A DNA stretch of 64,000 bases from a virus. The notes beneath the pieces were generated by a model. The model was given only the letters and a program-made list of their open reading frames with translations, searched no databases and had not been told where the DNA came from. The stretch lies in IMG/VR virus record IMGVR_UViG_3300034101_006340, positions 121,115 through 185,114 of that record. The stretch is one strand, 5' to 3'. Every line of letters begins with the position of its first letter. Position 1 is the first letter of the stretch. Both the position numbers and the translations under genes were made by a program. This document shows, piece after piece, positions 21,501 through 63,708 of the stretch.

Positions 21501-23685
21501 TTGTGCGGAATGCACCAAAAGCAATCTGGTTCTCTAGTTCTGCTAAACCATATGATCCAAGAGCGATAGAGTTTTTGCCTTTGGCTATAGAACCATAATT
21601 GAGCGCAACAGAATTGATACCACTTGCCGTATTGTAGGATCCAATTGCCGCAGATTCTGTTCCATAAACTTTATTGTGATCTCCTATAGCAATAGAATTT
21701 TCTGACTCAATAATATTAAAAGTACCAGCAGTTAGTGAGGATAAGCTACTGCTGCCAATAGTATTATCCTCTCCAATAACTAAATTGACATCATTAGTTA
21801 TTTCTATGTCTCCGTCAACTCTCTGTTTAATGTTCGATGAAGTAATTTTTCTAGCTGGTGAAACACTATCTGTAAATTTAGGAATATAATTATTTGTTCC
21901 TTCTATATGATCGAATGTTACATTGTTATAAGAAAAACTACCAGTAATATTACTAGCATTTCTGTAATAAGCGCCGTCTCTATCGTCTAAAAGATCTGCA
22001 TTAAGATTGTTGACTTTTATACTATTCCCAGCTAAATCAAAAGGAGGAGAAGACGGCGGGGCTCCATTAGATAAAAATCTGATTTGACCAACAACATCAA
22101 TTCCTTGTAGAAATTTCTTTAGTGCATTGATTGTTTGTTCTTGATTAGTATTGATATAAATCTGATCAGCGATTTCTCTAAATAATACTGTTAACTTATC
22201 TCCTTCTAAATTTTGAGTAATATAAATAGTGCTAGCAGACCCGCCATTGATATCGTCTTGAAAACTATTTCCATTGCCGTCAACATCGCCAACAGCACCA
22301 GAACCATAAATATTGGTTATAAGTCTTAATTGATTTTCTGTTGGGTAATATGCTAAAATACCAGTTTTGTTAGCAACTGTAGCACCATATTGAAACGTAA
22401 ATCCTCGTGGTTCAGACGGTAGTATATTAGGACTATTTAAACCAAATAATGGAAGATTGTCATATAGACTTGTTTCTCCACCAGATACAGCTAATCCACC
22501 AGCAACTGTTAAAAATCCATCCATCCTATCGCTTTCACTAGCTTTTAATGGTCTAAATCCTAGAGAATCTACGATATCGTTATAAGAAGCATAATAAACG
22601 CCATCTATAAGACCTTTAGCGTTTATACGAAATTTGGTTCCGTATTGATCACCAGAAGCGTGTAGGTTTGGTAGTCTGTCTAAAGAAAGAACACCGGTTA
22701 AGTTGGTAGAATCTCTATAGAAACTACCTTGTAAACCATCTAACAAATCTGCATCTAAGCCAGACCCAGATCCATCGTTGCCGGGATGCCATGGAGTATA
22801 TCCTAAAATTGATAAAATATCTAATGCCGTTAATGATAATCCACTAACTACTCTGCCTTTAGAATCAGTAATAACTTTCGTGTATGTTCCAGCAACGCCT
22901 GTTTCCGATAGTGATATAGAATTTTCTTCAACTAAAATATCAGCAGATGCACCTATTTGTAATAGAACAGATCCATTTGGAATAGATAATTGTCCACCAC
23001 CAACTAAACCAGAGCCAGCCTCAATGGTGATACTAGATCCACTAACTACGATAGTACCGGTATTAAGAGGTAATGATGTTAGTTTTGTCCCATTATAATA
23101 TATAAGTTGGTTTAAATTAAATATGTCATTATTAGTTCCACCTTTGCTAATTGGCACCATACCAGAAATAGCACCAAGACTCAGTTCAGCAGTTCTAGCT
23201 ATGGTATTATCTACTACGATTTTATTACTAGAAACCGTTAAGCCTTCTCCAATTTTAATATCCAAAATAGCAGTATTATTATTTACTTGTGTTTTCTGAA
23301 GACCAGTACCAGGAATGATACCTGTAATAGCATTGCTGTTAGCAGAAGCTAGATCTACAATATCTTGGATAGTATAAGACGAACTAGCTAATTTGTTTCC
23401 GTCATATGATATCAAATATCCACTATTAAAACTAGTATTATTAGTGCCTCCGCTAGATACAGGTAAAATACTAAATGTCAAACCATCTTTACCAGCGGGG
23501 CCTGCTGGGCCAACTAATCCTCTTTCTCCTTGCGGTCCTTTTTCGATAGTTACCAAGTCTATGGAACTAGTAGTCAGATCAGATACAATAATATTTGTTG
23601 TTGTTATCGTACCTTCTTCGGTTCGCAAACTTACTAATAAGTAGCGATTTGGTTGAAATTGTTCAGATACTGATACTATGCTCAT
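9544..23685 (-). CDS. Giant (~4,713 aa) fibre/adhesin-like virion protein
   Basis: Single open frame with collagen-like GPQGERGLVGPAGPAGKDG, fibre motifs (GTYTKVITDSKGRV, ADLLDG..G.FY x2), YadA-head-like repeats (SIAIG..N...G.ESAAIG..N.ASG.NSVAL) and a cadherin/CADG domain (LPRWLSFDAINLVLSGTP..CDIGSYSIDIKATD). Start placed at the second Met (23685), which overlaps the upstream TGA. Confidence 0.8.
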   Translation of the reverse strand: MSIVSVSEQFQPNRYLLVSLRTEEGTITTTNIIVSDLTTSSIDLVTIEKGPQGERGLVGPAGPAGKDGLTFSILPVSSGGTNNTSFNSGYLISYDGNKLASSSYTIQDIVDLASANSNAITGIIPGTGLQKTQVNNNTAILDIKIGEGLTVSSNKIVVDNTIARTAELSLGAISGMVPISKGGTNNDIFNLNQLIYYNGTKLTSLPLNTGTIVVSGSSITIEAGSGLVGGGQLSIPNGSVLLQIGASADILVEENSISLSETGVAGTYTKVITDSKGRVVSGLSLTALDILSILGYTPWHPGNDGSGSGLDADLLDGLQGSFYRDSTNLTGVLSLDRLPNLHASGDQYGTKFRINAKGLIDGVYYASYNDIVDSLGFRPLKASESDRMDGFLTVAGGLAVSGGETSLYDNLPLFGLNSPNILPSEPRGFTFQYGATVANKTGILAYYPTENQLRLITNIYGSGAVGDVDGNGNSFQDDINGGSASTIYITQNLEGDKLTVLFREIADQIYINTNQEQTINALKKFLQGIDVVGQIRFLSNGAPPSSPPFDLAGNSIKVNNLNADLLDDRDGAYYRNASNITGSFSYNNVTFDHIEGTNNYIPKFTDSVSPARKITSSNIKQRVDGDIEITNDVNLVIGEDNTIGSSSLSSLTAGTFNIIESENSIAIGDHNKVYGTESAAIGSYNTASGINSVALNYGSIAKGKNSIALGSYGLAELENQIAFGAFRTTTGTTVLEHGQYSTVAAYLKGIETHGSWISLSPVIQLPKEKTIAYNIELLMNKGLSSGVAHFSFTSGIINNATYRDPNNISNIINTTTVPNIGYKTEAYNNSQLRRHVHKWTYQDMSSGKEATKTQYVWAKSPPAQNLSVDLRYLYPYYFYTPENVAITGVFEKSHDGSLVLDIHRPRYYESFTQHPLNNTFVIQTQKPHQAVAGAMLECQFSSASMYLPPSGRYIVQGAPNSNSVAVTAPKWMAVKYGLPSGAKLVVNAPSGYDKFFNTNIPAAIQGTSIQYNSAYLVNQYGYALHTFIKPNMTIKIQYKDFSNNIYNYRRVITSITSSTININAPIKTIDINPTIISGPVSITIDDFSAHLFKSCNKLWVDGEALNILGAQTRTSPIFNTGENIVFVNDGGAGDINNPLAASLIGLQNSGFVYEPDAYGDSSFSITTATRIDRLIDGQSIEIAPLFTNNSGNVDIYARTDLACNYSSVLSDINVHTGVYVRYNIDNYQSIRLFDTNYQPLDFISAPMNYELVNGSFSEFNNKFRITRDKNRYFLYTNEALDYENNNIIPIRVRCTPQNINFSSFYEQVLYVYVQNLNEIPKVNIVLEPTGIPIDNVFVYSLPGNMFVEPDSGVLQYSANIKGGHPLPRWLSFDAINLVLSGTPDQCDIGSYSIDIKATDASGLYAFNNLIIEVSGNPVITSNVLASGISEILKINSIQLAKNTVLENSKDTLVGELLVNGGYNPYIFFGSASNSVSGIFMKGSDLFRHAQPTTKTFSNIVTLSGAPQLFGIGTNVFARSLPISDPSIGLSGNTKVTKTYRPTVLSGTPISGNLFIFDNIYIPYRDFAVFTGQYLGEQNLSECFGTNLRAKEISDFSIILGRGLIQEAKGLVLTENNDALDHEYSIPQLSFKVEQEGTIDDLKIEDDLSYLAYKDNTQKSVAWSKKISYSKLFDEKLENTLSSEVDTLIGDNESNFEYITHPVTLIDVFFTTENNYSIVTENKEKINGIIVDERVWFSTYPFRIRRNLRENIELLPTGIVYNPLRVVNPPTDDDNEGLFVSNIDYARSDLLHAYDSWTFLEHINNPILYVNGIGSNDTTQLITDDRNYTGYFYNSSPFEYAILSTEDNFGLIPETEKLNGSRIELSNRYELLDTTKIYPNNGKIFAELLEEELLCENNDRLVHDYAILAHSGSAYILFPGTINQIVLKYPTVYSYTATEVNNGSLGYYEDNLENRPTGLSFTEPDFYYSWGKLVPYYAYTNEYAIRLSNIYDRASTSGLLVYTGIAPADDNYFPEESLYNSVGLSSGDCPVNIPNSIINGMVVHDDLVGSQYVTGVATFYTSFAANDITITSNKDFNKDLRINDYVYLYEALSNQANALFPRTDTYTDVLSSTSNTIKVRNLFLYPSNRVVTHTGSIRLNLDRNHEQIIKSPDYVNRLPIKFNSVYNTNSARLPKNYLFDIIGVSGQKVVSSDNARYLLKSDEYLDSIVSGTYMTNGFKFFGSLFHDHEIIYDVRKLDKEFSSTYTNITFEYRKDTKILSLNLPTGIVSIFDNIRLSNFQPLSPSMIWDHNATYNTGFKVFKENLSIRNIDDVPDKDFVLLERSAAVLQPENKERLSFITDIFAASSSGTCYLDVNLTNRLDRGFILNYNDNLSKTTGHQYLDYNSGYSFTGIIPRYHKIISTTGTLNDTRIGYASIFNSGNQQWSSGIRTVRRAEPTDIGYVDFYHIYSTGFTNHINNIPYLNMKGVGSPERWYITDIISTSGSNKMLQFLYLGHNTNTIKIFGGIQTSSEDSGFSITKITYSQQTLIDKLADLGVVSGVTPIFTTGTNGLSGNLDITIPVTRFDTITIELNGNTTSNFNYLQLNTYVENTVNTPGLLLDSAIPIFTDKLYYPRNNQPLSNSFYILPSISTSTKYCNTNKPYNKNNTIYYNGNLIVIDNLSSVKSYCLENEQLRIKDLNRMPVSSGYARFIQKINPVNQLYSITGISLDGSLSIPSSIYDYQYASLRENTVRHLLPFGTGTGFLPNIGTISFIPHYSGTFDLINYNNIYLQSYGGYTARWPQDVDAVISNSPLTGVYAVFADEKICNSNKLCVTITPYLGSSFASLNSNDSYYFDFDSVASSISTTYRITDFINSNKISISPNYNSSLVGSSGLVYIIPSKYNIKTHLYPNIDNTFITQSLAVGLNTQLVQNSINYFDSSTKKWTHLFHLVKNIPIYSGYALQFNNDTTNIIYNNKDKIGITNLSIYNNTGMLFDNIGENFTIYSDSLGETIRISTSGGSPMLVTPASVNIPKIYISGLASYRTLTNASPLLYGYRAGSGWDIGVEIIPMNKTGVYPLTIIARDETGDSYKTVNMIIKDKKSVNTTYPTGYFTTSDTEWFLNFDTTGLDLLNDFPGNQGITLFGTPNDFSYDIDIRDASTISVQGYRLAGGGGSTIPFSTGIWNPVIRFADFYTSETIAVGTGTIKILSSLNDRPPFVPTLNKVKTDYYVDISQLQNISFYIPVYEQVANPSTFFSAPGINTTTSISWDGDTNRYIATVIPKNTGDSSYLSETKYIAGGQFSYNVNQYLYVDGSPSTVNYSSSTYNFNLTFYRPMMVSYYYNSSSSGIFSLDQPWTYEFALQEGVIKHRPDKPPRVKLYNTPSIGDNSNIDLSYKVRYRYNENGNYWIVLLEGKPDIYGRYAANTGTYNIKFTADDQIASSITGSFNITYKHTKSINYIQSNIYTTPNNEFFINADIVDKASGNKASNQITFAGNNSLFISPNQASMQFDSNLNIWEFYATGNKLIDKWDARLIVDTNSQYPSLTLQCKGIADDKITAVAKVNLLELQNNNLDIVEGLPIKITGINNGNQNTPFTPESGLIVQQGEKWQLNFKTIFGLQSPQNPPSIFLSGTPTVCSGYDPRLDPLYNTDLPPNSQLHKCIATQPLFNTADKSWNFSFSGDPSCLLSGELDFSIIAIDTNLANNPIYIEPSDSIQSVFTYIPTTQDHPVPNIVQGSAPEFNIKTAIKPGCDSYFNVYKFGPANRSVCPIPTGLSGIITSGSLPTGLTYSIQYSGPEGNLFNAPHYDNVNSGVLTIQGSVSYYPPSGSSEYPDKFYLTIIDARGKKKTQEIIFGTSVTPMAPNIYMTLYFENADPIFTPSTGNDKITMGGITVKQPEASVLEMTCYSTIPFSPHCAKFPVMYSGADSTSTDFLVLHPVASHSAQYTNIQNNSFIYFNMLELNNNDGNYYVKKATSLTGLPNHVPLNSFYIKSNESISSPHTGIAEIVISTPVVKAIADLATVFNVGDVTLSTEGCVLGNGRVAADLQGRYGIYGFVSPSFSGYIPTGGYFASSDTFGTGLRYNVVDDTSRLAEIKYTTCPETGFVRFSGVSLPPIYIEITDPPPLANRSYGDDGTTFSLNSRLAYGDSIIERNKPQNERAGTAYYTVTNLVSNSTIQSGSVSVAIQNSAPIRLTSSTLAQSANNKGATFRIDYSCAGGAFPTFDPNTNPTATPSIYSWVHKAGLLGDIPTENSFPAVTISYPDTFNIYSGELINYNSLNGQYGIRGLALGGYIPTDICIGGLCPDGYTNYPYLLSISGNNGSIWSSSSYLPSISGIILNSVVSRKFNNSGNIPDFTKTAGYYSAPTSLVVRNDWIASINSSPGQTDIYEVFDVNNLVEVTVTYTPPFQPTQILDVFITGLTSGNFDLGGLSVPNMGTRPIVFSKNYGSQSLNLDIDLKPVTRITNIDLSGNLIYIRHNNLSMTEATTNIILDKITSQYSDRFSSVFYTMEDKATILSVNSISNTGLVLIAGGGSTPSGIYRGFSTNDSIKIHSTIEDNIKIMPANIDSNTEGNFDFLISGRPNILYGQYNYRVITRENPLAPIFVLGWRPKAFYKDCIMNVGKPLSIVSSTVSWGQSSNSWTVTLNIDGGVYPALSQRMKVKIDRTGLGNWTYCGFNRFQPNTNKDTYNSTTGLTTITLSSSNGANWGPGIISSFDILVYDDSGSDTITINRQA

Positions 23686-24122
23686 GTTACACAGTTTCCA
23701 CAATCATCTTGTAAATCCGTATCGCATTGAAATGCGTCTGTGTCAGGTACATTACGTGGTACTAGACCTATTCCACCTTGTAAAATTCTAAATACTTTTC
23801 TGCCGCCACCAGAATATAAGTCATTGGGTTCTTGTAATTCTAGATCATATCTTGCAGAGCCGAACGTATAGTTTAAGGTTTCGGAAGCAGGGATTTTTAG
23901 AACAATTTTACCTAATAATGGATCTATAGTAAATTCATATTGAGAATTTCTTGTATTAGTGACAAATGTTCGAACGGTTGGAGAAGTCTGGTCCTCTATC
24001 CATCTTAATCTAGCACACCAATTCGTTAAATTAATTGGAAGTTGATTATCGTCTTTATATTCGAAAGCAATAACAAAAGCGGTTCCCTTTTCTATAGAAA
24101 AATTGTACTCTGCTGCTGGCAT
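23682..24122 (-). CDS. Small virion adaptor-like protein (paralogue of 41083..41484)
   Basis: MPAAEYNFSIEKG...PINLTNWCARL...GKIVL...ARYDLELQ is nearly identical in motif to the 41083 ORF. Confidence 0.6.
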   Translation of the reverse strand: MPAAEYNFSIEKGTAFVIAFEYKDDNQLPINLTNWCARLRWIEDQTSPTVRTFVTNTRNSQYEFTIDPLLGKIVLKIPASETLNYTFGSARYDLELQEPNDLYSGGGRKVFRILQGGIGLVPRNVPDTDAFQCDTDLQDDCGNCVT

Positions 24123-54060: not shown

Positions 54061-54142
54061 CGTAAACCCTTACGGCTTAAGGACTTACGACGAAAACGCG
54101 CCCGCAATTTTGACGTAAGTGCTTATATATCAACGACTTACG
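54061..54142. repeat. 82-bp double-dyad element, copy 1
   Basis: cgtaaaccctt-acggctt-aaggacttacg / 24 bp / cgtaagtgctt-atatatc-aacgacttacg. Confidence 0.95.
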
Positions 54143-54148
54143 ACGCAT

Positions 54149-54164
54149 AGCAAATATCATGCCA
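54149..54164 (-). promoter_or_regulatory. sigma54-type site TGGCATGATATTTGCT
   Basis: GG-N10-GC, 6 bp from the end of dyad element 1. Confidence 0.65.
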
Positions 54165-54253
54165 AAAAATAATTTTCTTTTTCTAATTTTTTTTTCTTGC
54201 AAGTACGATAATGATATGTAGAATAAGTGAAAAGAAAGAAAGAGAGATTGAAA

Positions 54254-54484
54254 ATGGCAAACCTGATTGTTCTGAATACTAAGGCTGAGTTGGTTGACCT
54301 TATCAACAATACGGAAATGACGACGTTTGTAAATCGTGTGGCCTTTGCCATGGATTTGCTTGACCATGTTCGTGCTAATGGTAATGAGATTGCCATTGAC
54401 GATGAGTTAGGATTTATGGATGATGGTGGATACATTCAGATTGACGATATGGGCTATGTTGTGGCCGATTTTGCAATCTGCTGA
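54254..54484 (+). CDS. Early acidic hypothetical protein (76 aa)
   Basis: First ORF behind element 1 and promoter 54197. Confidence 0.65.
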   Translation: MANLIVLNTKAELVDLINNTEMTTFVNRVAFAMDLLDHVRANGNEIAIDDELGFMDDGGYIQIDDMGYVVADFAIC

Positions 54485-54559
54485 TTTTCTTTTCTTGACA
54501 ACTAAAGTTTCGAATGTAGAATGTCGATATAAAGAGTAAGAAAGAAAGAGAGAAAGAAA

Positions 54560-54739
54560 ATGAACGTTGGTGATTTTATTTTCGCCGAATATGATAACGG
54601 CGAAATTGTGAACGGTGAAGTGGTCACGGTTAGAACGTTTGGGGATCGTATGCTCTTGACGGTCAAGGCCGAACAAGGGTATCGGTCGATCTATCTTGAC
54701 AAGTGTATCACGTTTGATATGCTGGAAGCCTCTAACTGA
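54560..54739 (+). CDS. 59-aa paralogue of 53150 ORF (MNVGDFIFAEY...GYRSIYLDK)
   Basis: Translated by hand, behind promoter 54495. Confidence 0.7.
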   Translation: MNVGDFIFAEYDNGEIVNGEVVTVRTFGDRMLLTVKAEQGYRSIYLDKCITFDMLEASN

Positions 54740-54748
54740 AAGTGTAAT

Positions 54749-54937
54749 ATGTTGACTGTCAAGCCCGAACATTATCGTAAGACTTTCGAAGATATGAAAA
54801 CTGAACACTTGCAATTGTGGCTTCATCTCGCACAGAATGAACTCCCCTCTAAAATGGGGGCTGCTCGGGAACTTATCAAAGCGGGTATTAGTGCTGCGGC
54901 CAGTGAATTGTTGTTCCGGTGGAGGCATAGCCTGTGA
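54749..54937 (+). CDS. Early hypothetical protein (62 aa)
   Basis: Track ORF, co-oriented with neighbours. Confidence 0.5.
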   Translation: MLTVKPEHYRKTFEDMKTEHLQLWLHLAQNELPSKMGAARELIKAGISAAASELLFRWRHSL

Positions 54938-55061
54938 TATACTGGGAAACTTCAAGATGCTCTGATAGATATAGAGTATGGAAAAATGGCGATATCGTGG
55001 GTGATAATCTTACAATCGATGAATGTTGGAAACTAATAATCTCTATACAGGATAACAAATA

Positions 55062-55250
55062 ATGAATAGCCTTGATAAGATTCTAACAGCTATGCGAACT
55101 GGCAAGTATGGTAGTGTTATTGATACTAAAGGTAATGCTCATGTTGGTATTATCAATAGTATCATGCGAGAAGATGGTAGCGGAAAGAATTGGATTGTAA
55201 CAGTGAACAATCGTACAGTAAGTGAACAAGTGTTCATTCATGCGTCATAA
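55062..55250 (+). CDS. Early hypothetical protein (62 aa)
   Basis: AGGA RBS, track ORF. Confidence 0.6.
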   Translation: MNSLDKILTAMRTGKYGSVIDTKGNAHVGIINSIMREDGSGKNWIVTVNNRTVSEQVFIHAS

Positions 55251-55261
55251 AGGAATAATAC

Positions 55262-55432
55262 ATGAGAAGTATCGACACCCTTACACTGCAACACGAATTA
55301 CGACGCTCGCAGTTTGTTCTTGATAGATGTACAACCGAGCAGCAGAGACAAATGTATAGGCTATATATAAAAGACTTATCTGCTGAACTACTCTATAGAT
55401 ATCGTGAAATGAAGTTAGCCCCACCGGCATAG
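55262..55432 (+). CDS. 56-aa hypothetical (MRSIDTLTLQHEL...)
   Basis: Translated by hand, AAAGGA RBS. Confidence 0.5.
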   Translation: MRSIDTLTLQHELRRSQFVLDRCTTEQQRQMYRLYIKDLSAELLYRYREMKLAPPA

Positions 55433-55448
55433 TGTACGTCTGTACCAG

Positions 55449-55485
55449 CTAACCCTACGGGTTGGCAAGATGGGCTATAGCCAGC
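55449..55485. repeat. ~38-bp TAC-triloop hairpin repeat (other copies 57681-57718 and 60094-60131)
   Basis: ctaaccc-tac-gggtt..ggc......ggctatagccagc. The third copy has aatcc-tac-ggatt. Confidence 0.8.
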
Positions 55486-55566
55486 GTAAACCCTTGATAT
55501 ATAAGGACTTACGACAAAAAAGCGGGCGAGATTTTGACGTAAGTGCTTATGCTGCAATGACTTACG
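55485..55566. repeat. 82-bp double-dyad element, copy 2
   Basis: cgtaaaccctt-gatatat-aaggacttacg / 24 / cgtaagtgctt-atgctgc-aatgacttacg. Confidence 0.95.
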
Positions 55567-55572
55567 ACATAG

Positions 55573-55588
55573 AGCAAATGCTGTGCCG
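55573..55588 (-). promoter_or_regulatory. sigma54-type site CGGCACAGCATTTGCT
   Basis: GG-N10-GC, 6 bp from element 2. Confidence 0.6.
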
Positions 55589-55676
55589 CAAAAAACTTTT
55601 TTTGACTGATTTTTTTTAGTTGACAAACCGATACTAGAATGTAGAATGATTGAAAAGAAAGAAAGAGAGAAAGCAA

Positions 55677-55802
55677 ATGGAATGGCTGGTTTTCAATGGT
55701 AATATGCAAGTGATTGGTACGGTTGTTGCTGACGGTTATACTGAGGCTTTTATGGTCGCCCGTTGCCGATTTGGTTATGTCGAATACATTGAGCAAATGT
55801 AG
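55677..55802 (+). CDS. 41-aa hypothetical (MEWLVFNGNMQVIGTV...), related to 59949 ORF
   Basis: First ORF behind element 2 and promoter 55620. Confidence 0.6.
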   Translation: MEWLVFNGNMQVIGTVVADGYTEAFMVARCRFGYVEYIEQM

Positions 55803-55858
55803 GGATTGACAGTCTACCAAACCTTTGATAAGATAGTCTCAACAAGAAAGAAGAAAAA

Positions 55859-56233
55859 ATGAAAACGAAGTATGCTATCATTGAAAACGCCAAGCGTCAG
55901 GCCCGGATGATCTTCAAGGGTATCGCTATTCCGATGCTCGTCGAGATTCCGGACGATAAGGTAATCGAAGGTGAGGATGCTCACTATGTCTACAGTGTTG
56001 ACGGCCAAAAGCGATACCTTGTCACCGAAAAGGTTCTCAAGTTCAATCGCAAGGCTCTGCGTCGTGCTGGTACTGTCAAGGTCACCAAGGCCGACCCCCG
56101 ACTTGTGGGGGGTGAGGATCTTATGCGATTCCCGGTTGGTAAGCCCGGCAGTCGTGAGCGTGTTGAGGCTCTTGCTGCACAGTATGCTAGTCTGTCAGAA
56201 GATGAGATGAGCCCCTTTGCTGATGAGGAGTAA
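55859..56233 (+). CDS. Early hypothetical protein (124 aa)
   Basis: Track ORF with purine-rich leader. Confidence 0.7.
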   Translation: MKTKYAIIENAKRQARMIFKGIAIPMLVEIPDDKVIEGEDAHYVYSVDGQKRYLVTEKVLKFNRKALRRAGTVKVTKADPRLVGGEDLMRFPVGKPGSRERVEALAAQYASLSEDEMSPFADEE

Positions 56234-56394
56234 ACACATGCTCAAGAATCTTGAAGATAAAACGCTCTCAGTAATGTGGACAGTAACAGAAGGTACTAAT
56301 GATTTGTACAGTATTTATCTTGATGGACAACTGTACATGAGTCACCTGTCGTTCGATGAGTTCTACCCCATATATAGGGGGTTGCTTAAATAGA

Positions 56395-56476
56395 CGTAAA
56401 CCCTTACGGCGTAAGAACTTACGTCAAAAGGGCGCCGCCCGCCGCGTCGTAAGTGCTTATGCCACAATGACTTATG
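56395..56476. repeat. 82-bp double-dyad element, copy 3
   Basis: cgtaaaccctt-acggcgt-aagaacttacg / 24 / cgtaagtgctt-atgccac-aatgacttatg. Confidence 0.95.
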
Positions 56477-56482
56477 ACCACT

Positions 56483-56498
56483 AGCAAAAATTATACCA
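56483..56498 (-). promoter_or_regulatory. sigma54-type site TGGTATAATTTTTGCT
   Basis: GG-N10-GC, 6 bp from element 3. Confidence 0.5.
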
Positions 56499-56590
56499 AA
56501 AAGAAAAAACTTTTTTCGCTAATTTTTTTTCTTGACGTTTCCGATATCTAATATATAATCGAAGCATCAACCCACAAAGGAGAATCCACA

Positions 56591-56785
56591 ATGCTTCACG
56601 ATTTTGATGAAATCAATGTTATCCTCTCCGCCATGCACGACGAAGGTTTGGTCGAACCGATTGATGAGCCGTCATGTCATCCTCTTGAGTGGGCGGAGGT
56701 TACTGGGCTAATCGAGGAAGTGATGGAAGAAATCTATCCCGAACCCATGGTTGACGAACACGGTATTCTTTGGTATACTTACTGA
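56591..56785 (+). CDS. Acidic hypothetical protein (64 aa)
   Basis: AAGGAG RBS, behind element 3 and promoter 56532. Confidence 0.7.
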   Translation: MLHDFDEINVILSAMHDEGLVEPIDEPSCHPLEWAEVTGLIEEVMEEIYPEPMVDEHGILWYTY

Positions 56786-56798
56786 AAAGGAGAAAAAG

Positions 56799-57113
56799 AT
56801 GAGTCACCCCGATTCCTGCTACGATCCCGATAACTCTTACGAGGATGATGACATGGCATACAACTATGACGATTACAATGGCTTTCATGACGAGGACAGT
56901 GCGGGCTATCATCCAGATGCCGAGCATGAGGTTGCTTCACAATTTAATGAGAATGACGAAGATGAAGAATGGTTTGACGATTATGATGATAGTATGGATG
57001 GAGATCACGAGTCCGGCCTTGCGAGTGCGGGTTGGGGGACCGATGAGGATTACGGCCACTATGGAGATGACATCGATTCCTTCCACGATTATTATGGTGG
57101 AGAGGACTACTGA
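56799..57113 (+). CDS. Extremely acidic D/E/Y/H-rich protein (104 aa)
   Basis: AAGGAG RBS. No Lys or Arg in the translated product. Confidence 0.7.
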   Translation: MSHPDSCYDPDNSYEDDDMAYNYDDYNGFHDEDSAGYHPDAEHEVASQFNENDEDEEWFDDYDDSMDGDHESGLASAGWGTDEDYGHYGDDIDSFHDYYGGEDY

Positions 57114-57305
57114 TAAAAAATAATAATACGGGGTATTATCAGTTTCGAAAGGATAAATAATGTCAAAAGATGAACCGTATGTATATGTATTAGATAATCA
57201 TCGTGGTGATAGAGTATGGGTGCGGGAAAATTATGTAAAGTTATATCCTCATCTATATACGCCCATACAGTTTAATGGAAAAACCATGACCAGTGACTGC
57301 CCGAA

Positions 57306-57387
57306 CGCAAACCCTTGTGTCGTAAAGACTTAGGGCGAGCGGGGCCGGCCGACTTTAACGTAAGTCCTTATCCGACAACACTTTAGA
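57306..57387. repeat. 82-bp double-dyad element, copy 4
   Basis: cgcaaaccctt-gtgtcgt-aaagacttagg / 24 (central GGCCGGCC) / cgtaagtcctt-atccgac-aacactttag, last arm degenerate. Confidence 0.9.
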
Positions 57388-57477
57388 GCAAATTAAAAAA
57401 TTGTCTTTTTTTTCTTTGACAACTAAAGTTGCTTTGATAGAATGTCGATATACAAGTAGAAGAAGGAGAAAATACAG

Positions 57478-57684
57478 ATGAGAAAGCTAAGCAAAACGGA
57501 AATTGCTGATTTGGAGTTTGACGCTGATCTTATGGGTTATAGGGTGGTCTATCTGCCAAAACCACTTGACGAGAATCATTTCGTGTTGTATCGTAAAGAG
57601 CCAGTGTTGACTCATATCGGACACTATCGTAATCTTATCAAGGTTCGACAGGCTATGCAGGATAACTACGTTAGTCCTAGCTAA
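57478..57684 (+). CDS. Early hypothetical protein (68 aa)
   Basis: AAGGAG RBS, behind element 4. Confidence 0.65.
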   Translation: MRKLSKTEIADLEFDADLMGYRVVYLPKPLDENHFVLYRKEPVLTHIGHYRNLIKVRQAMQDNYVSPS

Positions 57685-57781
57685 CCCTACGGGTTTGGCT
57701 GGTGTGGCTTTAGTCAGCCTAAAGTTTTGACTCTTGACAAGACGATATATTATAGTAAACTGATGCAGGAAAGGGAGACTT

Positions 57782-57952
57782 ATGGTAACTCTGCTGTTTA
57801 CGATTGCTGGTGTAAGTGGTTTATTTTTATTTAGTGAGATTCTTGCTAAGATTTGCAGGGATCTCAACGAATATAATACTATGAAGCAAAGAGGATTTAT
57901 GCGTATGAAGGATGATAAGGGCGAAGATTTCTGGGTAGGTTACGGGGATTGA
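57782..57952 (+). CDS. 56-aa membrane-anchored micro-protein
   Basis: MVTLLFTIAGVSGLFLFSEILAKI..., GGGAG RBS, promoter 57734. Confidence 0.55.
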   Translation: MVTLLFTIAGVSGLFLFSEILAKICRDLNEYNTMKQRGFMRMKDDKGEDFWVGYGD

Positions 57953-58156
57953 CTCTAATTATAGGAGAACACGGATGTTTGAAATTGATTTTGTTAGTGT
58001 TGTACTTGGTTATATTCTCGGGGTTATACTTTGTTATAATACTGCACCTCTCTTTTTTATGGAGAAGAATGATGAGGATAAGTGATCTGATTTTGTGGAG
58101 TGTGGCTTTTATTTGTGGCTGTACGGCTACATATCTAATGAATTAAAACTGTTCGA

Positions 58157-58238
58157 TGTAACCCATTGCCACTAAACAACTTAGGGCAAAATGGGCCGGC
58201 CGAATTTTTCCTAAGTCTTTATCTATCAACAACTTACG
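58157..58238. repeat. 82-bp double-dyad element, copy 5
   Basis: tgtaacccatt-gccacta-aacaacttagg / 24 (central GGCCGGCC) / cctaagtcttt-atctatc-aacaacttacg. Confidence 0.9.
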
Positions 58239-58315
58239 TCTAAAGATTTTTTCTAATTTTTTTTCTTGACATTACCGATCTATAGAGTAGAATCAAGAAA
58301 ACGAAGGAGATAAAG

Positions 58316-58555
58316 ATGCTCGACGGATATAAGAAAACCTATACGTTTGGCAATGGTTACGGAGCCAGCGTTGTTTGCAATCGGCACACCTATGGTGGCG
58401 ACAGGGGGTTTTTTGAGGTTGCTGTGCTAGACATGGCCGGAGAGATTGTGTACGATACTTCTGTGACTAGCGATGTGATCGGATGGCTTGATTTTGATGG
58501 TGTTGCTAAGACGCTGCAAGCAATCCAGAATCTTCCAAAAAAGACTAATGTTTGA
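58316..58555 (+). CDS. Early hypothetical protein (79 aa; FGNGYGASVV...FFEVAVL)
   Basis: AAGGAG RBS, behind element 5. Confidence 0.7.
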   Translation: MLDGYKKTYTFGNGYGASVVCNRHTYGGDRGFFEVAVLDMAGEIVYDTSVTSDVIGWLDFDGVAKTLQAIQNLPKKTNV

Positions 58556-58592
58556 CTTGACAAGCGTCGATCTATAGTATAGGATTTGAAGC

Positions 58593-58730
58593 ATGACTGA
58601 AAACGAAATCGAGATGTGGGCTACGCTAGCCATCTGGTTTATTGGTGGATGGTTTGTAGGTTCTACCGTTGGTTGGTATGCCTTTCTTTACGCTTTTAAA
58701 CTGTTTGACGATTATCTGCACAGGAACTAA
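58593..58730 (+). CDS. 45-aa membrane micro-protein
   Basis: MTENEIEMWATLAIWFIGGWFVGSTVGWYAFLYAF..., promoter 58557. Confidence 0.5.
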   Translation: MTENEIEMWATLAIWFIGGWFVGSTVGWYAFLYAFKLFDDYLHRN

Positions 58731-58817
58731 AATGGACGCTCTGATTGGTTTAAGTTTTGTTGTTGCTTACGCTGGTTTTTTCTACTGCACTGTCTCTCTT
58801 TACGAAAAGGGTTGAAT

Positions 58818-59126
58818 ATGACTCACGCCGAAGCTGTTACTATGGTTCGTGGTAAGACTAACCGGACTAGTCGTAAAATTGGTAATAATACTCGTGGATA
58901 TATCGAGTATGATGGTAGTGTTAGTATCGAATTACATAGCACTAAGGTTGTGGTGTTGTATCCGAATGGTCTTGTGAAGTTGCAGACTGGTGGATGGCAA
59001 ACGGTTACTACAAAGGATCGTATCAACCAGTATAGCCCCGTAAGAGTTTACCAAAGAAATTACGAGTGGTTTGTCAAGTTGAATGGCAAAGAATATCCAT
59101 TCATCGAAAATATGGTGGTATCATGA
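58818..59126 (+). CDS. Early hypothetical protein (102 aa; LQTGGWQTVTTKDRIN)
   Basis: Track ORF with start trimmed. Confidence 0.7.
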   Translation: MTHAEAVTMVRGKTNRTSRKIGNNTRGYIEYDGSVSIELHSTKVVVLYPNGLVKLQTGGWQTVTTKDRINQYSPVRVYQRNYEWFVKLNGKEYPFIENMVVS

Positions 59127-59320
59127 AAAATATCAACCAGATTATTAGATCATTGCAAAAGGCAGGATTTAAAGTAGAGTTTGGTAATGGTAGTTTGGTA
59201 AAGCTATATCCTGTGGATTCGACTCAGCCATTCTATTCGTTGCATATTGGTGAACGCGCTATTCATCCGTTGAAGAGATTTGCAAAGAAAAATTGGAATA
59301 TCGAGTTGAATAAACTGTGA
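59123..59320 (+). CDS. HicA-like fold protein (65 aa)
   Basis: IIRSLQKAGF.V..GNGSLVKLYP...YSLHIG pattern, ATGA-coupled to the previous gene. Confidence 0.45.
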   Translation: MKNINQIIRSLQKAGFKVEFGNGSLVKLYPVDSTQPFYSLHIGERAIHPLKRFAKKNWNIELNKL

Positions 59321-59384
59321 CTTGACAAGTAGTTTTTTTGTGGTATGCTTGGTGTGTCTTCTAACTAATCGAAAGGAAAAGAAA

Positions 59385-59786
59385 ATGAACGAGTTTGTTA
59401 TTGCTGGTATGGTTTGTTGTGTTGTTGCTGTTGTTGGTTTCATCCTGTTTCATGTGTATCGTGGTACTGCCGATACCCTGAGTAATGCTCGTATTGGTGG
59501 TGTGTATAACTTTCAGTACGAACAGCCAGTAACTGGTGATCCTGAGCGTTTTATGGCTAGGGTTATTAGTGTGCATCGTTTGAGTGCAGATAGTATTCAG
59601 AGACTGAATCGTACTAGCCGTTATCGTAAGCATGACAATCAGTTTGTGCGTACCACACACCTTGTTACTGCACAAACTCCGGATGGTAAGATTCGTAACT
59701 TCTATGCCGAACGTACTAGCAATGTTCGTCGCCCCCTCCTTGGTGGGGCGTTGTTCAAGAGCGGTTTGGCTGCGATGATTTTCTAA
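59385..59786 (+). CDS. Membrane-anchored protein with WYL/SH3-like domain
   Basis: N-terminal hydrophobic helix; YNFQY...LVTAQTPDGKIRNFYAER. Confidence 0.5.
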   Translation: MNEFVIAGMVCCVVAVVGFILFHVYRGTADTLSNARIGGVYNFQYEQPVTGDPERFMARVISVHRLSADSIQRLNRTSRYRKHDNQFVRTTHLVTAQTPDGKIRNFYAERTSNVRRPLLGGALFKSGLAAMIF

Positions 59787-59801
59787 AAACCGGTCGCTCT
59801 T

Positions 59802-59883
59802 CCTAAGTTCTTATACCACAAGGACTTAGGGAGAGTGCGGCCGCAGCATTTTGCTGTAAGTTGTTATTCCACAAGGACTTAGG
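59802..59883. repeat. 82-bp double-dyad element, copy 6
   Basis: cctaagttctt-ataccac-aaggacttagg / 24 (tgcggccgca) / tgtaagttgtt-attccac-aaggacttagg. Confidence 0.95.
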
Positions 59884-59948
59884 ACGACTAAAGTTTTGCT
59901 GTTGACAAGCCGATATTCTATAGTAGAATGATCGAAACGGAGAAAGAG

Positions 59949-60161
59949 ATGAAACCGTATTTGTGGGCTGTGTGGCAACATAATCGTTTGGTCGGTTATG
60001 TTCAATCTTTTAGTGAATGGGACGCTATCAGATATGCTCATTCTAAATATGGTCATGGATTGTATGTAGAAAGATGCCTACATTGTGTACCATCTAATCC
60101 TACGGATTCGGCTAGAGTGGCTGTAGTCAGTCAGAATACGGAGAACAGATATGCTTCATGA
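59949..60161 (+). CDS. Early hypothetical (70 aa), related to 55677 ORF
   Basis: Behind element 6 and promoter 59902. Confidence 0.6.
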   Translation: MKPYLWAVWQHNRLVGYVQSFSEWDAIRYAHSKYGHGLYVERCLHCVPSNPTDSARVAVVSQNTENRYAS

Positions 60162-60348
60162 ATGTACCAAGCAGTTGATTAGGAATCAGGTTGCAGATTT
60201 TGCAGAAAAGTTGATTACCCATGCTATTGAAGGAGATAATGAAGGGTGTTTGCAAGAGATGACATCCTTTTATGAATTCTTTTGCGGGGCCTTGACAGTG
60301 GCTCTCAGGGATGGTAGAAAGAGTGATGAACGAGTAAGCGTCAACTGA
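60151..60348 (+). CDS. Early hypothetical protein (65 aa)
   Basis: GGAG RBS. Confidence 0.55.
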   Translation: MLHECTKQLIRNQVADFAEKLITHAIEGDNEGCLQEMTSFYEFFCGALTVALRDGRKSDERVSVN

Positions 60349-60358
60349 AAGGGAAAAG

Positions 60359-60859
60359 ATGCCTAATTGGTGCCAGAATAATCTGACGATTGAGCATAAT
60401 GATCGGTCTAAGGTTATGGAGTTTGTTCTTGCCTATAAGGAAGGCAAGGTTTGTGACCATTATCTGCCCGTGCCAAGAGATGAGAAGGGTGAGGTTATCA
60501 CAGATGAATCTAGCCCACACTACTGGTATACTTGGTGCATAAATAACTGGGGTACTAAGTGGGATATTGGTAGTGATAATAATGAGGCCCATGGATTGAA
60601 ACCTACCGTTGTGGGTAATCAGGCCACTATGGCTTTTGATAGTGCGTGGAGTCCTCCGGTTGGACTCTACGAAAAGTTGCAAGAACTTGGATTTAGTGTA
60701 GAGGCTACGTATTTTGAGCCGGGTATGGCTTACTGTGGTATCTGGCATGATGGAGACGATCATTATGTTGAGTATACTCATAAGGATATGATTCCTAAGC
60801 GTATTTGGGATGATTATAATCTTAGTGAATTTTTTACTGAAGAGGAGATTGAAACATGA
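60359..60859 (+). CDS. Api92/YubB-like (DUF1281 C-terminal ferredoxin-like) protein
   Basis: MPNWCQN.L...WCINNWGTKWD...FDSAWSPP...YFEPG. Confidence 0.75.
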   Translation: MPNWCQNNLTIEHNDRSKVMEFVLAYKEGKVCDHYLPVPRDEKGEVITDESSPHYWYTWCINNWGTKWDIGSDNNEAHGLKPTVVGNQATMAFDSAWSPPVGLYEKLQELGFSVEATYFEPGMAYCGIWHDGDDHYVEYTHKDMIPKRIWDDYNLSEFFTEEEIET

Positions 60860-61062
60860 GAATGTGGATTAGCGACAAGGAAATGCAGAAGTATCATGAT
60901 GCCGTATCTATGCGATGTGGCGATTATCAGATATGGGATGGAATATCTCTTGACAATATGACTAATGAAGAGTATAAGAAGGGTATTTTAGAGTGCTATC
61001 GTAAGGCTCTCAATGATATTCCTATGCCTAATGAAACCCCAGTAAAAGGATTGGTTGGATGA
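60856..61062 (+). CDS. Early hypothetical protein (68 aa)
   Basis: GAGGAG RBS, ATGA overlap. Confidence 0.6.
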   Translation: MRMWISDKEMQKYHDAVSMRCGDYQIWDGISLDNMTNEEYKKGILECYRKALNDIPMPNETPVKGLVG

Positions 61063-61232
61063 AACCTTGTCCATGTGGCTCTAACAAAAACAGTTGGTGG
61101 GAAAGTGATGCTAGGGGTATTCCACTGGCTAGGGTGTGTGTGGAGTGTAAGGAAAAGAAGTTGAGTAAGTTTAGACCGGAAGTGCTTGCCAACTCAAACT
61201 ACTACGCAGACGAGCCTATCGAAGCCGAATAG
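61059..61232 (+). CDS. 57-aa Zn-finger protein (MKPCPCGS...DARGIPLARVCVEC)
   Basis: Translated by hand. CxC...CxxC motif, ATGA overlap, ends 9 bp before element 7. Confidence 0.65.
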   Translation: MKPCPCGSNKNSWWESDARGIPLARVCVECKEKKLSKFRPEVLANSNYYADEPIEAE

Positions 61233-61241
61233 GTGAATCGC

Positions 61242-61323
61242 TCTAAGTTCTTTGCCCAAGAGGACTTAGGGCGAGTTCGGCCGGCCGGGTTCGTCGTAAG
61301 TTCTTGCGGCTAAACACTTTATG
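61242..61323. repeat. 82-bp double-dyad element, copy 7
   Basis: tctaagttctt-tgcccaa-gaggacttagg / 24 (central GGCCGGCC) / cgtaagttctt-gcggcta-aacactttatg. Confidence 0.9.
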
Positions 61324-61347
61324 ACTTGCTTCATTTTCTGCAACAAC

Positions 61348-61363
61348 TGGCACACGCTTTGCT
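61348..61363 (+). promoter_or_regulatory. sigma54-type site TGGCACACGCTTTGCT
   Basis: GG-N10-GC, here on the plus strand between element 7 and a sigma70 promoter. Confidence 0.6.
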
Positions 61364-61426
61364 CTCTAAAGATTCCCTCTTGACTTGCCGATAAACTATG
61401 CTAGGATAGCAGCACACAGGAGAGAA

Positions 61427-62140
61427 ATGATGAAAACAGCAAATGGTAATGATAAGTTGGGTAAGGAAAACTGCATTGTGGTGAGTCGCCCCGTTGGTGA
61501 TACTTGCCCGCCCGATTGTGATTTTCTCGGAAACGGCTGCTATGCCGAGGACTTGGAAAATATCTATCCCGGTGTGCGTCCTGCTGGTATGCAGAATCTT
61601 ATCACAGAAAAGAATCGTATCCGCTCTATGCTTGTGGATGCGGTCAAGAAAAACAAAGATGTCCGCTGGCATGAGCGTGGCGACTTTTTCAAGGATGGTA
61701 GTCTCGACACCGAGTATGTAGATAACGTACTGTGGGCGTGTGAGAGTATTCTTGCTAGTGGTGGTAGTCTGCCGACTATGTGGGCTTATACCCATATTTA
61801 TGATAGTCGTTTATCTACCGAACTTGGCAAGTATATAAATATGTATGCTAGTATTCATGACGGCGAAGATATGCGACAGGCTAAGGCTGCTGGTTTCAAA
61901 CTGTTTGCATGGTGTGATAGTGATACTAAAATTGCACCGAAGCGTCCGCGTGGTAAGGCTAAAGCCGCAGCGTGGCGAGCAGCGTTGCCGAAACTGGTTG
62001 TACTGGAAGGTGAGAAGTTTATCACTTGCCCGGAAATCCGTCGTGGTCGTGGTGTTGTGACTTGTACACAAACGAAGAATAGTGTACACTGTGACTTGTG
62101 TCCGCGTGGATTGGCTAACGTGCTGTTTCCATCACACTGA
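61427..62140 (+). CDS. Gp88-like (radical-SAM-related) Cys-rich protein
   Basis: TCPPDC......CYA, VRWHERGDF, WAYTH, C-terminal CPE...C....CDLC. Start moved behind promoter 61380 and the AGGAG RBS. Confidence 0.7.
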   Translation: MMKTANGNDKLGKENCIVVSRPVGDTCPPDCDFLGNGCYAEDLENIYPGVRPAGMQNLITEKNRIRSMLVDAVKKNKDVRWHERGDFFKDGSLDTEYVDNVLWACESILASGGSLPTMWAYTHIYDSRLSTELGKYINMYASIHDGEDMRQAKAAGFKLFAWCDSDTKIAPKRPRGKAKAAAWRAALPKLVVLEGEKFITCPEIRRGRGVVTCTQTKNSVHCDLCPRGLANVLFPSH

Positions 62141-62147
62141 GGTTTTT

Positions 62148-62720
62148 ATGTCTGTATATATTGGACAATATGATGATGCTGGAAGCAAAAATGCTTTTTA
62201 CATTATCCCACAACGTAGGTTTGGCAAAAAGCGTATTGGATTCAAAGAGTTTGAAAATAAAAATGAAGCAGACTTTGCGTATAAGATTCAGAGTATTTTA
62301 GCAGATAAAGATTTAGCCCCCAAGGTTTATGGTCAAGTAGGACGAATCCAGAAGTCTGGTTATGATGGTGAATTGACCGGTTATGGATACCTTACAGAAA
62401 TTGCCCGACCTATGGCATACTGTAATGATGAATATTGTGATGGTGAGTGTTATGATAGTGATTGTAGAAATAGTAGTATCATAGCAGATATTGTGGGTAT
62501 GTTAGATTTTTATGGATTGGCTTATAGTGACCATCATCGTGCGAACTTTGGATATGTTCGACGTAATCGACAGTGGATTCCCGTCGTAATAGATGTTGGT
62601 ATTGAAAGTTTTGATGGTTGGGATGAGAGTATTTATGGAGAGTTTCAGTCTGACGACGAAGAAAACTATGGATCGTGCAACTGTGTATGTTGTCGCCAAT
62701 ATGCTAATCCCGAAAGGTAA
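62148..62720 (+). CDS. Protein-kinase-like enzyme
   Basis: IGFKEF (beta3 Lys), LAPKVYG, catalytic-loop YSDHHRANFG and IDVG (DFG-like). Confidence 0.65.
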   Translation: MSVYIGQYDDAGSKNAFYIIPQRRFGKKRIGFKEFENKNEADFAYKIQSILADKDLAPKVYGQVGRIQKSGYDGELTGYGYLTEIARPMAYCNDEYCDGECYDSDCRNSSIIADIVGMLDFYGLAYSDHHRANFGYVRRNRQWIPVVIDVGIESFDGWDESIYGEFQSDDEENYGSCNCVCCRQYANPER

Positions 62721-62723
62721 ATC

Positions 62724-62954
62724 ATGGCTAAATACTATATCAAGTGTGGAACATTGGAACTAATCTACTCATGCAACAAGGCTCCACGATATGCTGCTAT
62801 GGATGCTATATGGGAATTAAATGATAATGATGTGCTAGATGAGCATATCTATTTGGATGAGCGAAGCTATAAAGACTATACTAATGCTGATGGTTTAACT
62901 ACCGTTTTACACACTTCGCATATCTTGAAGGATGCGGGCTGGAGTTTGGAGTAG
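62724..62954 (+). CDS. Early hypothetical protein (76 aa)
   Basis: Track ORF. Its stop lies 1 bp before element 8. Confidence 0.6.
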   Translation: MAKYYIKCGTLELIYSCNKAPRYAAMDAIWELNDNDVLDEHIYLDERSYKDYTNADGLTTVLHTSHILKDAGWSLE

Positions 62955-62955
62955 A

Positions 62956-63037
62956 CCTAAAGCCTTGATCGTAAAGGACTTACGACGAGGCTGGCCGCAG
63001 GATGTTGACGTAAGTGCTTGTGTGATATAGGGTTGCA
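62956..63037. repeat. 82-bp double-dyad element, copy 8
   Basis: cctaaagcctt-gatcgta-aaggacttacg / 24 / cgtaagtgctt-gtgtgat-atagggttgca. Confidence 0.9.
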
Positions 63038-63109
63038 TCAACAGAATTTTTTCCAGAATTCCTATAGAAGCCTCTTGACAAGTGACGATAATACTTGTAG
63101 AATGACAGC

Positions 63110-63530
63110 ACAACACAAACATTCGTGGGCCAATGTAGGGCTAGGTTGGGATAAGCCATTACGATAAACCTACCGTATGCAATGCATCGGAAAGGTTGCC
63201 AACGGGCTTATACGTTGGATAGTAGTGCCAATCTATGGGGGATCGCGTCCTCACCACGACCATACAATCCGGAATTATCCTTCATCGGGTAATAGAGTGA
63301 ATTAACACCGCAACATTACGCTTGCGTTCTATCTTTCATCGGGTAGAATCACTGAAATAACAGCCGGATACCGAACAACCAGTAACCGCTCCCAAGAGCC
63401 AGACCAAAGTGACTGTTGCTAGCAGACTATCACTTTGCAGGGAGGATTTCCGTGGGCGGTTTCCATCCGGTCCTGACAAGGGCAATCGTATGGGTTATAG
63501 GATCGGGGCGTAAATGATCCGCTGGGTTTA
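63110..63530 (+). ncRNA. Candidate large structured ncRNA (~420 nt), family unassigned
   Basis: Directly behind promoter 63075-63103, GC-richer than its surroundings, no ORF of 60 aa or more. Many nested helices and two hairpins with an identical UUCAUC loop. Confidence 0.6.
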
Positions 63531-63546
63531 ATACAAAGGAAAAAGA

Positions 63547-63708
63547 ATGACTAAAGAAGAAGCGATTATTAAAGTTCTCAGGGTTCTAAAGAATCCTATG
63601 ATGATTATGAGTCCTGCCAAGAAAGAGGCATTGACTTTAGCAGAAGAGCATGGTATAACGGTATCAGACTTGATTAGTGAATACGAAAAGATAGCAATGA
63701 GGGTATAA
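63547..63708 (+). CDS. 53-aa hypothetical (MTKEEAIIKVLRVLK...)
   Basis: AAAGGA RBS after the structured region. Confidence 0.55.
   Translation: MTKEEAIIKVLRVLKNPMMIMSPAKKEALTLAEEHGITVSDLISEYEKIAMRV

Follow-up and report, generated by a model that had tools for sequence, protein, structure and literature searches.

Does a stretch of phage DNA that holds no sizeable gene and lies directly behind a near-consensus promoter specify an RNA and, if it does, is that RNA one fold or several, and what might it do? The question is raised by positions 63105-63530 of the window, by which we mean the whole 64,000-nt stretch of DNA analysed here (positions 121,115 to 185,114 of the viral record IMGVR_UViG_3300034101_006340). 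A sequence-only reading of this DNA had noticed that the region follows a repeat and a consensus promoter and is free of long open reading frames (ORFs), and had proposed that it encodes a novel, multi-domain structured RNA of about 420 nt.

The locus and its neighbourhood

The setting proved to be as described. The largest ORFs in the region are 34–49 aa long and overlap one another. Upstream lies repeat element 8 (62959..63035, plus strand; context only, outside the RNA), the last copy of the eight-copy direct-repeat family D1, which puts a cassette boundary upstream of the promoter. The promoter itself is of the sigma-70 type (63075..63103, plus strand; −35 box 63075-63080, 17-nt spacer, −10 box 63098-63103), matches 11 of the 12 consensus positions and belongs to a type common to six other cassette promoters in 54–60 kb; equivalent promoters are found immediately 5' of module A, described below, in the homologous loci. 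From its position, the RNA probably starts near 63110. The plus-strand early region, at about 52–64 kb, is partitioned into cassettes by the eight-copy repeat and by near-consensus promoters. The repeat copies, of about 77–82 bp and with paired inverted repeats, stand before each main early promoter (window 54061-63037).

Downstream, a stretch read from the sequence (63530..63549, plus strand) comprises an AAUACAA linker motif and, for the first gene downstream, both the ribosome-binding site and the ATG; this gene codes for 53 aa (63547-63708, plus strand) and has homologues at 86–91% identity. The window also carries a tailed-phage structural block with large terminase, portal and tail fibres; one ORF of 4719 aa was observed in the structural region (9544-23703, minus strand). 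Beyond the window end, the phage's own genome contains eight tRNA genes and a Pistol ribozyme, 1.3–5 kb downstream of the RNA and on the same strand. This cluster (L074:3117-6955 = G000:C1:34116-37954, minus strand there) is interleaved with small ORFs, several of which also intervene between it and the RNA, and the Pistol self-cleaving ribozyme lies at L074:5070-5132, on the same strand as the RNA. In the relatives, tRNAs and Pistol ribozymes are likewise found near the RNA, and further RNA modules, some of them tRNA-shaped, adjoin the A-B unit described below; apart from A, B and C, none of the relatives' modules was found in the genome of this phage.

Modules A, B and C and the strand under selection

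Homologues were reached through the flanking proteins, which led to two related contigs that were then aligned; these two first relatives showed near-identical blocks broken by clean insertions and deletions. Two conserved 20-mers retrieved 18 and 39 viral contigs, and the one shared by the 39 contigs also retrieved 92 metagenome stretches, while covariance models placed module A at 107 sites and module B at 92 in viral and metagenome contigs. As judged from these matches, the A-B pair is present in well over a hundred related phage contigs, of uncultured freshwater or lake phages. The window satisfies both family models in A-then-B order, with 152.7 bits for A (model R1, E 6e-38) and 154.3 bits for B (model R2, E about 1e-39), the two being 112 nt apart with module C in between.

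Module A (147 nt, 63114..63260, plus strand) was given a fold of six helices and a pseudoknot by RNAalifold and manual inspection. The helices, all on the plus strand, are P1 (63123-28/63254-59), P2 (63129-31/63139-41), P3 (63142-49/63228-35), P4 (63167-70/63194-97), which has an apical extension, P5 (63199-204/63213-18) and P6 (63238-41/63248-51); P1 and P5 contain the complementary segments cgtgg/ccacg and ccaacg/cgttgg that had been picked out by eye, and both show compensatory changes in the homologues. Among the first 26 distinct sequences 98.0% of the cells were paired and 11 pairs had compensatory changes; with the 89 distinct homologues collected with model R1 the paired cells were 98.8%, and 18 of the 38 pairs, spread over all seven helices, were compensatory. 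None of 500 column shuffles of the alignment reached the observed value, and in slid-partner controls only about 40% of the cells were paired. The pseudoknot joins 63151-63157 to the P5 loop (63205-63211, plus strand) and covaries: it is 99.5% paired, with three compensatory pairs, as in the change from G-C to C-G in eight distinct sequences, and it lies outside the covariance model, so that the alignment does not favour its pairing. An unbiased mutual-information scan of A returned the proposed pairs as its top matches and recovered the pseudoknot, and the minimum-free-energy (MFE) structure of the window copy gives the nested helices. A candidate lone tertiary pair, 63157/63227, was also seen in perfect covariation (C-G in 77 sequences, U-A in 7, A-U in 1); it is in competition with the pseudoknot's last pair.

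Module B (156 nt, 63373..63528, plus strand) is a four-way junction, closed by stem Pb1 (63379-83/63521-25). The long stem Pb2 (63384-89 and 63392-94 with 63453-61) leads to a three-way sub-junction with the hairpin Pb3 (63405-63437) and a mini-hairpin of 4 bp (63440-43/63448-51), and is followed by the variable hairpin Pb4 (63463-63493), absent in minimal forms, and by Pb5, a 5-bp stem (63500-04/63516-20) with a conserved loop of 11 nt, all on the plus strand. In the 79 distinct homologues collected with model R2, 98.6% of the cells were paired and 9 of the 26 pairs had compensatory changes, including four of the five in Pb5; Pb1 was invariant. Two more of the helices found by eye, aaagtga/tcacttt and ggatc/gatcc, correspond to Pb3 and Pb5, and both are backed by compensatory changes. 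The interior of Pb2 occurs in at least four alternative versions among the relatives, and Pb3 and Pb4 are swapped as whole hairpins, while the core of B is strictly conserved. A pseudoknot in which the loop of Pb5 would pair with the 5' strand of Pb2 was considered and rejected, as it showed no consistent covariation.

Module C (112 nt, 63261..63372, plus strand) is an optional insert between A and B. It consists of a closing helix (63267-73/63363-69), hairpin 1 (63274-63293, loop 63281-86), an inner helix (63296-300/63349-53), hairpin 2 (63309-63326) and hairpin 3 (63328-63347, loop 63335-40), all on the plus strand. Nine copies were found, each between A and B; in the pattern scan for this module, half of the matches were unrelated coding sequence. 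Across the nine copies 99.6% of the cells were paired, and six pairs had compensatory changes, confined to the three hairpins. The closing and inner helices, previously proposed as atccgg/ccggat and agtga/tcact, fit the fold and are always pairable, but their changes are absent or one-sided, so that the homologues neither prove nor contradict them. Hairpins 1 and 3 form a near-identical local duplication with the same UUCAUC loop; these twin hairpins, already noticed in the sequence-only reading, are real, and their loops are kept in eight of the nine copies, both differing in the most divergent one, L076. The suggestion that the duplicated loop could be a binding or kissing module was not supported; the loop is only a lineage-specific feature of an optional module.

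The folding energies were compared with those of dinucleotide shuffles. On the plus strand, the z values were −1.98 for the whole region, −2.95 for A and −3.70 for C; B, with −0.48, was no better than its shuffles, although its MFE structure reproduces the cloverleaf. On the minus strand z was about 0 for the whole region and for each module. Non-pairs amount to about 1% of the cells, and G-U pairs are tolerated while A-C pairs are not: at two positions of P6 in module A, for example, G-U is found in 60 and 78 sequences out of about 85. The G-U tolerance, the shuffle-like minus strand and the plus-strand promoter together indicate that selection acts on the plus-strand RNA and not on the DNA.

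A very different explanation is that there is no functional RNA here, the region being a DNA-level element (protein-binding palindromes, an origin, a recombination scar) or a decayed gene. It lies among the DNA repeats that partition the early region, and the palindromes and linker motifs discussed below could act on DNA. On the other hand, the compensatory changes at about 30 helix positions across A, B and C, and the tolerance of G-U but not of A-C, are those of a plus-strand RNA only, and the indels among homologues have lengths that are not multiples of three, with modules exchanged whole. We therefore regard this explanation as extremely improbable. Judged by its covariation, 63105-63530 is a plus-strand structured non-coding RNA gene behind an early-type promoter.

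Order, inserts and linkers among the homologues

Where enough sequence was available, A precedes B in 81 of 85 loci; the two are adjacent, with a short linker, in 40 loci, and 60–360 nt apart in 41. Overall, the spacer measures between 4 and about 360 nt and its content is unrelated, the inserts being of at least six unrelated types, each closed by a hairpin, with module C found in few relatives. This strict order fits one two-domain RNA and two co-transcribed RNAs equally. Either module can also be found in other company: L046 has A without B, placed directly before the 53-aa gene, 12 nt from a Shine-Dalgarno sequence, and L011 has B behind a different 5' domain. Tandem duplications of A were observed in three contigs (L023:7343-7635, L034:2610-2902 and L080:4770-5062), in which the second copy has diverged (98–101 bits against 146–148 bits).

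Whether these parts build one compact structure depends largely on the contacts between them. A single large ornate RNA, with its domains packed into one tertiary fold in the manner of GOLLD and ROOL, was implied by the sequence-only reading, which had proposed a long-range helix, ccatac/gtatgg. GOLLD and ROOL are single large folds of about 580–800 nt or more that form homo-oligomeric cages. This possibility gains from the fact that A and B occur almost always together and in the same order, and from the features of GOLLD, which also has a conserved 3' and a variable 5' part, lies near phage tRNA islands and, like ROOL, forms oligomers held partly by kissing loops (PMC12286853). Against it, the long-range helix is refuted: it borrows a strand of Pb4, which is cleanly deleted in L004, a homologue 87% identical in which everything else is kept, and is missing in minimal relatives (L051 and L021). 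The same applies to the proposed helix caggg/tcctg, in which, moreover, caggg clashes with Pb2 and the mini-hairpin. With the failure of both helices that use the Pb4 strand, six of the eight helices found by eye agree with the covariation-supported fold, and nothing indicates that the 420 nt are closed as a whole by a helix. Furthermore, a mutual-information scan of 72 distinct A+B combinations detected no Watson-Crick covariation between A and B, on which ground tertiary pairing between the two was dropped; the A-B spacer varies in length and content as described, and no GOLLD or ROOL model matches. Hence we find the single packed fold improbable, and of the earlier proposal the plus-strand, multi-domain structured RNA stands whereas the single ornate fold of about 420 nt does not, given the separable modules of the homologues. 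As far as the comparison of homologues can tell, the RNA is three separately folding modules, A, C and B, rather than one 420-nt fold. We also observed that the hexamer CGUGGG is common to the 5' strand of P1 in A (63124-63129) and the 3' strand of Pb2 in B (63451-63456); pairing of either copy with the 3' strand of P1 is conceivable, and no covariation support was found for this alternative pairing.

If the modules fold separately, they could also act separately. The transcript would then be a precursor string from which A, C and B are cut apart at A-rich linkers, each acting alone, e.g., as a decoy that engages tRNA-targeting nucleases or RNA-binding proteins of the host. Transcripts of phage tRNA clusters and the T4 RNAs C and D are indeed cut from a precursor. 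Here a conserved linker motif, AAUACAA, flanks the modules: it stands after A in 81 of 99 cases, after B in 32 of 86 and before A in about 70%, and shows no enrichment over the window as a whole. Phages also exchange modules among themselves, tRNA-shaped inserts that have a T arm and end in CCA occur in some relatives, the region is shared with tRNAs and self-cleaving Pistol ribozymes, and no covariation between modules was found. By contrast, the nearly invariant A-then-B order would be needless for independent RNAs, neither the tRNA model nor ARAGORN recognises anything in the region, and the linker of some loci overlaps the −10 box, which places it partly outside the transcript, so that it may be a recombination joint at the DNA level and not a site of RNA cleavage. 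On balance, we consider the precursor fairly unlikely.

The tRNA-shaped elements of the relatives were observed in two positions. In L028:6467-6611, L050 and L017 the A-B insert, of about 150 nt, has an acceptor-like stem of 8 bp, a T arm whose T loop looks canonical and a CCA end that is itself encoded; a further 100 nt or so are also structured and contain another palindrome of 6 nt. In L036:8547-8720 and in L023 a long tRNA-like RNA with a large insertion lies directly 3' of B, and is recognised only weakly by the Rfam tRNA model (45.7 bits).

What follows B bears on a further explanation, namely that the RNA acts in cis as a 5' leader controlling transcription elongation, stability or translation of the downstream mRNA, as do the put RNAs of phage HK022, leader RNAs that control transcription elongation. 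In the window, only three U lie between module B and the ribosome-binding site, the first one after the promoter, and there is no strong terminator; in physical terms, this copy of the RNA is thus an mRNA's 5' leader. In about a third of the loci a gene starts at most 30 nt after B, and the isolated A of L046, so close to a Shine-Dalgarno sequence, also favours a leader. The sequence after B, however, changes by locus: it may be one of several different genes, a U-run and a new promoter, or further RNA modules or tRNAs, the last two arrangements accounting for at least ten loci. This variability argues against a gene-specific leader. In addition, no alternative pairing that involves the ribosome-binding site can be seen, and a conserved fold of 260–430 nt with a pseudoknot and swappable inserts would be unusual for a leader. 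A cis-acting leader is, in our opinion, unlikely.

The palindromic loop of B and a possible role

A perfect palindrome of 8 nt, UGCUAGCA (63417..63424, plus strand), lies in the apical loop of Pb3 and is a candidate self-pairing (kissing) site. In the Pb3 region, a palindrome of at least 6 nt was found in 37 of 43 distinct forms, and one of at least 8 nt in 23; in the Pb4 region, used as a control and longer, the same lengths were reached in 11 and in none of 62 distinct forms, with the reservation that the sequences counted are phylogenetically related and these statistics overstate their independence. The same 8-mer sits on three different stems, other lineages carry other palindromes, and palindromes persist in at least three stem contexts that are unrelated. 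Variants arise by symmetric double changes, which preserve the palindrome, and flanking positions lengthen a 6-mer core symmetrically to 8 or 10 nt. The axis of the palindrome is off the axis of the stem, and therefore it is not simply an over-long stem. The pattern is the one expected if the loop paired with the same loop of a second molecule, which makes the apex of Pb3 a better candidate for a kissing module than the UUCAUC loop of C; the palindromes can also be protein or restriction sites at the DNA level.

Taking these elements together, our best guess, which we trust about as much as we doubt it, is an early trans-acting RNA that pairs with itself through the Pb3 loop, the self-pairing step being deduced from the palindromes. 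The A-B RNA would be made early in infection and would act in trans as a stable folded particle rather than as a gene-specific leader; B would pair with a second copy of B through the palindromic apical loop of Pb3, and the resulting dimer or oligomer might bind or sequester a host or phage factor linked to the neighbouring tRNA and ribozyme region. A search of the phage genome for antisense targets of the conserved single-stranded segments returned none beyond the RNA's own locus. The suggestion, from the sequence-only reading, that the RNA may be a decoy or scaffold expressed early is a reasonable idea.

A more elaborate proposal, which we put forward as speculative and rather doubtful, is that A-B is a self-assembling RNA scaffold in which B oligomerises and the A-B hinge docks interchangeable cargo modules, such as C or the tRNA-shaped inserts. 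If this were true, the RNA chassis would be common, and each phage lineage would equip it, early in infection, with a decoy or binding module of its own.

Structured RNAs so conserved almost always have a specific biochemical job, and, to our knowledge, very few of those encoded by phages are understood. The A-B family, abundant in lake viromes, has a pseudoknot, junctions that do not vary and helices that covary, as seen in about 90 distinct sequences, together with an unusual architecture, in which two constant domains, A and B, bracket swappable inserts. Its palindromic Pb3 loop offers a direct, testable hypothesis of RNA self-assembly.

Relation to known RNAs

The novelty proposed for this RNA was confirmed as far as Rfam is concerned. 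At gathering thresholds, Rfam 15 gave no match in the whole window, a result that covers GOLLD, ROOL, HEARO, OLE and raiA as well as RNase P, tmRNA, group I/II introns and riboswitches. At E<=10, the interval 62900-63700 gave only two chance matches, both inside the downstream gene, and a 290-nt minimal homologue gave none. ARAGORN found no tRNA or tmRNA genes in the window, and RF00005 was absent from the region at E<=10. No match was obtained in a cultured-phage collection, either by blastn of the region or by megablast of the surrounding 9 kb, nor did an exact scan of 185,579 prokaryotic species-representative genomes with the most conserved 20-mer of the A domain return any, so that there is no clue to the host. 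The A-B family is therefore new with respect to Rfam; the catalogue of Fremin et al. 2023 (PMC10690425) may include an unnamed candidate equivalent to it. The covariation expected of a genuine RNA was found in all three modules, each with compensatory changes.

A number of identities were tried and discarded. For an RNase P-like P4, an HDV-like or hatchet-like ribozyme, SRP and tmRNA, either the topology or the conserved nucleotides disagree, and the Rfam models give no match. A tRNA-like 3' end after A was suggested by a CCA before the linker in many copies, but not in all of them; B has the topology of a cloverleaf, but also an 11-nt loop and no CCA end, and was not accepted as a tRNA or tRNA-like RNA. 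A riboswitch or other class of cis-regulatory leader was rejected because the downstream genes vary among loci and, in many copies, what comes next is a new promoter or another RNA.

Among known systems, the T4-type PeSL (promoter-stem-loop) arrangement is similar in that the early region is split by repeats and strong promoters and modules are exchanged like cassettes; PeSLs, however, are short boundary elements, in contrast to a 420-nt RNA with conserved multi-helix folds. The T4 RNAs rnaC and rnaD (species 1 and 2; NC_000866 70908-71171) are also small folded RNAs co-located and co-oriented with phage tRNA genes, although they abut a tRNA whereas small protein genes intervene here; searching NC_000866 69500-73500 with R1 (filters off) and R2 gave no match better than E about 0.8, and homology to rnaC/rnaD is thus not supported. 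The pRNA of phi29 is an early-transcribed, two-domain phage RNA that multimerises by loop-loop pairing. It uses two different complementary loops, unlike the one palindrome found here, and its family (RF00044) gave no Rfam match; with an ordinary large terminase and portal in this phage, nothing points to a packaging RNA.

Closest in kind to the A-B RNA, by analogy, are GOLLD (RF01998) and ROOL (RF03087). The A-B RNA matches neither covariance model, even at E<=10, and differs from them in having a core of only about 260 nt (about 420 nt for the window copy) and separable modules. All of them are, nonetheless, structured RNAs borne by phages, with tRNA islands close to those and a tRNA cluster 1.3–5 kb downstream of this one, and the kissing loops of the former have a possible counterpart in the conserved palindromic loop of B, which may pair with itself. 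The A-B family could in this sense be regarded as a small, tractable relative in kind of the large RNAs found by phage tRNA islands, and, its core being so small, it is well suited to probing, cryo-EM and pull-downs.
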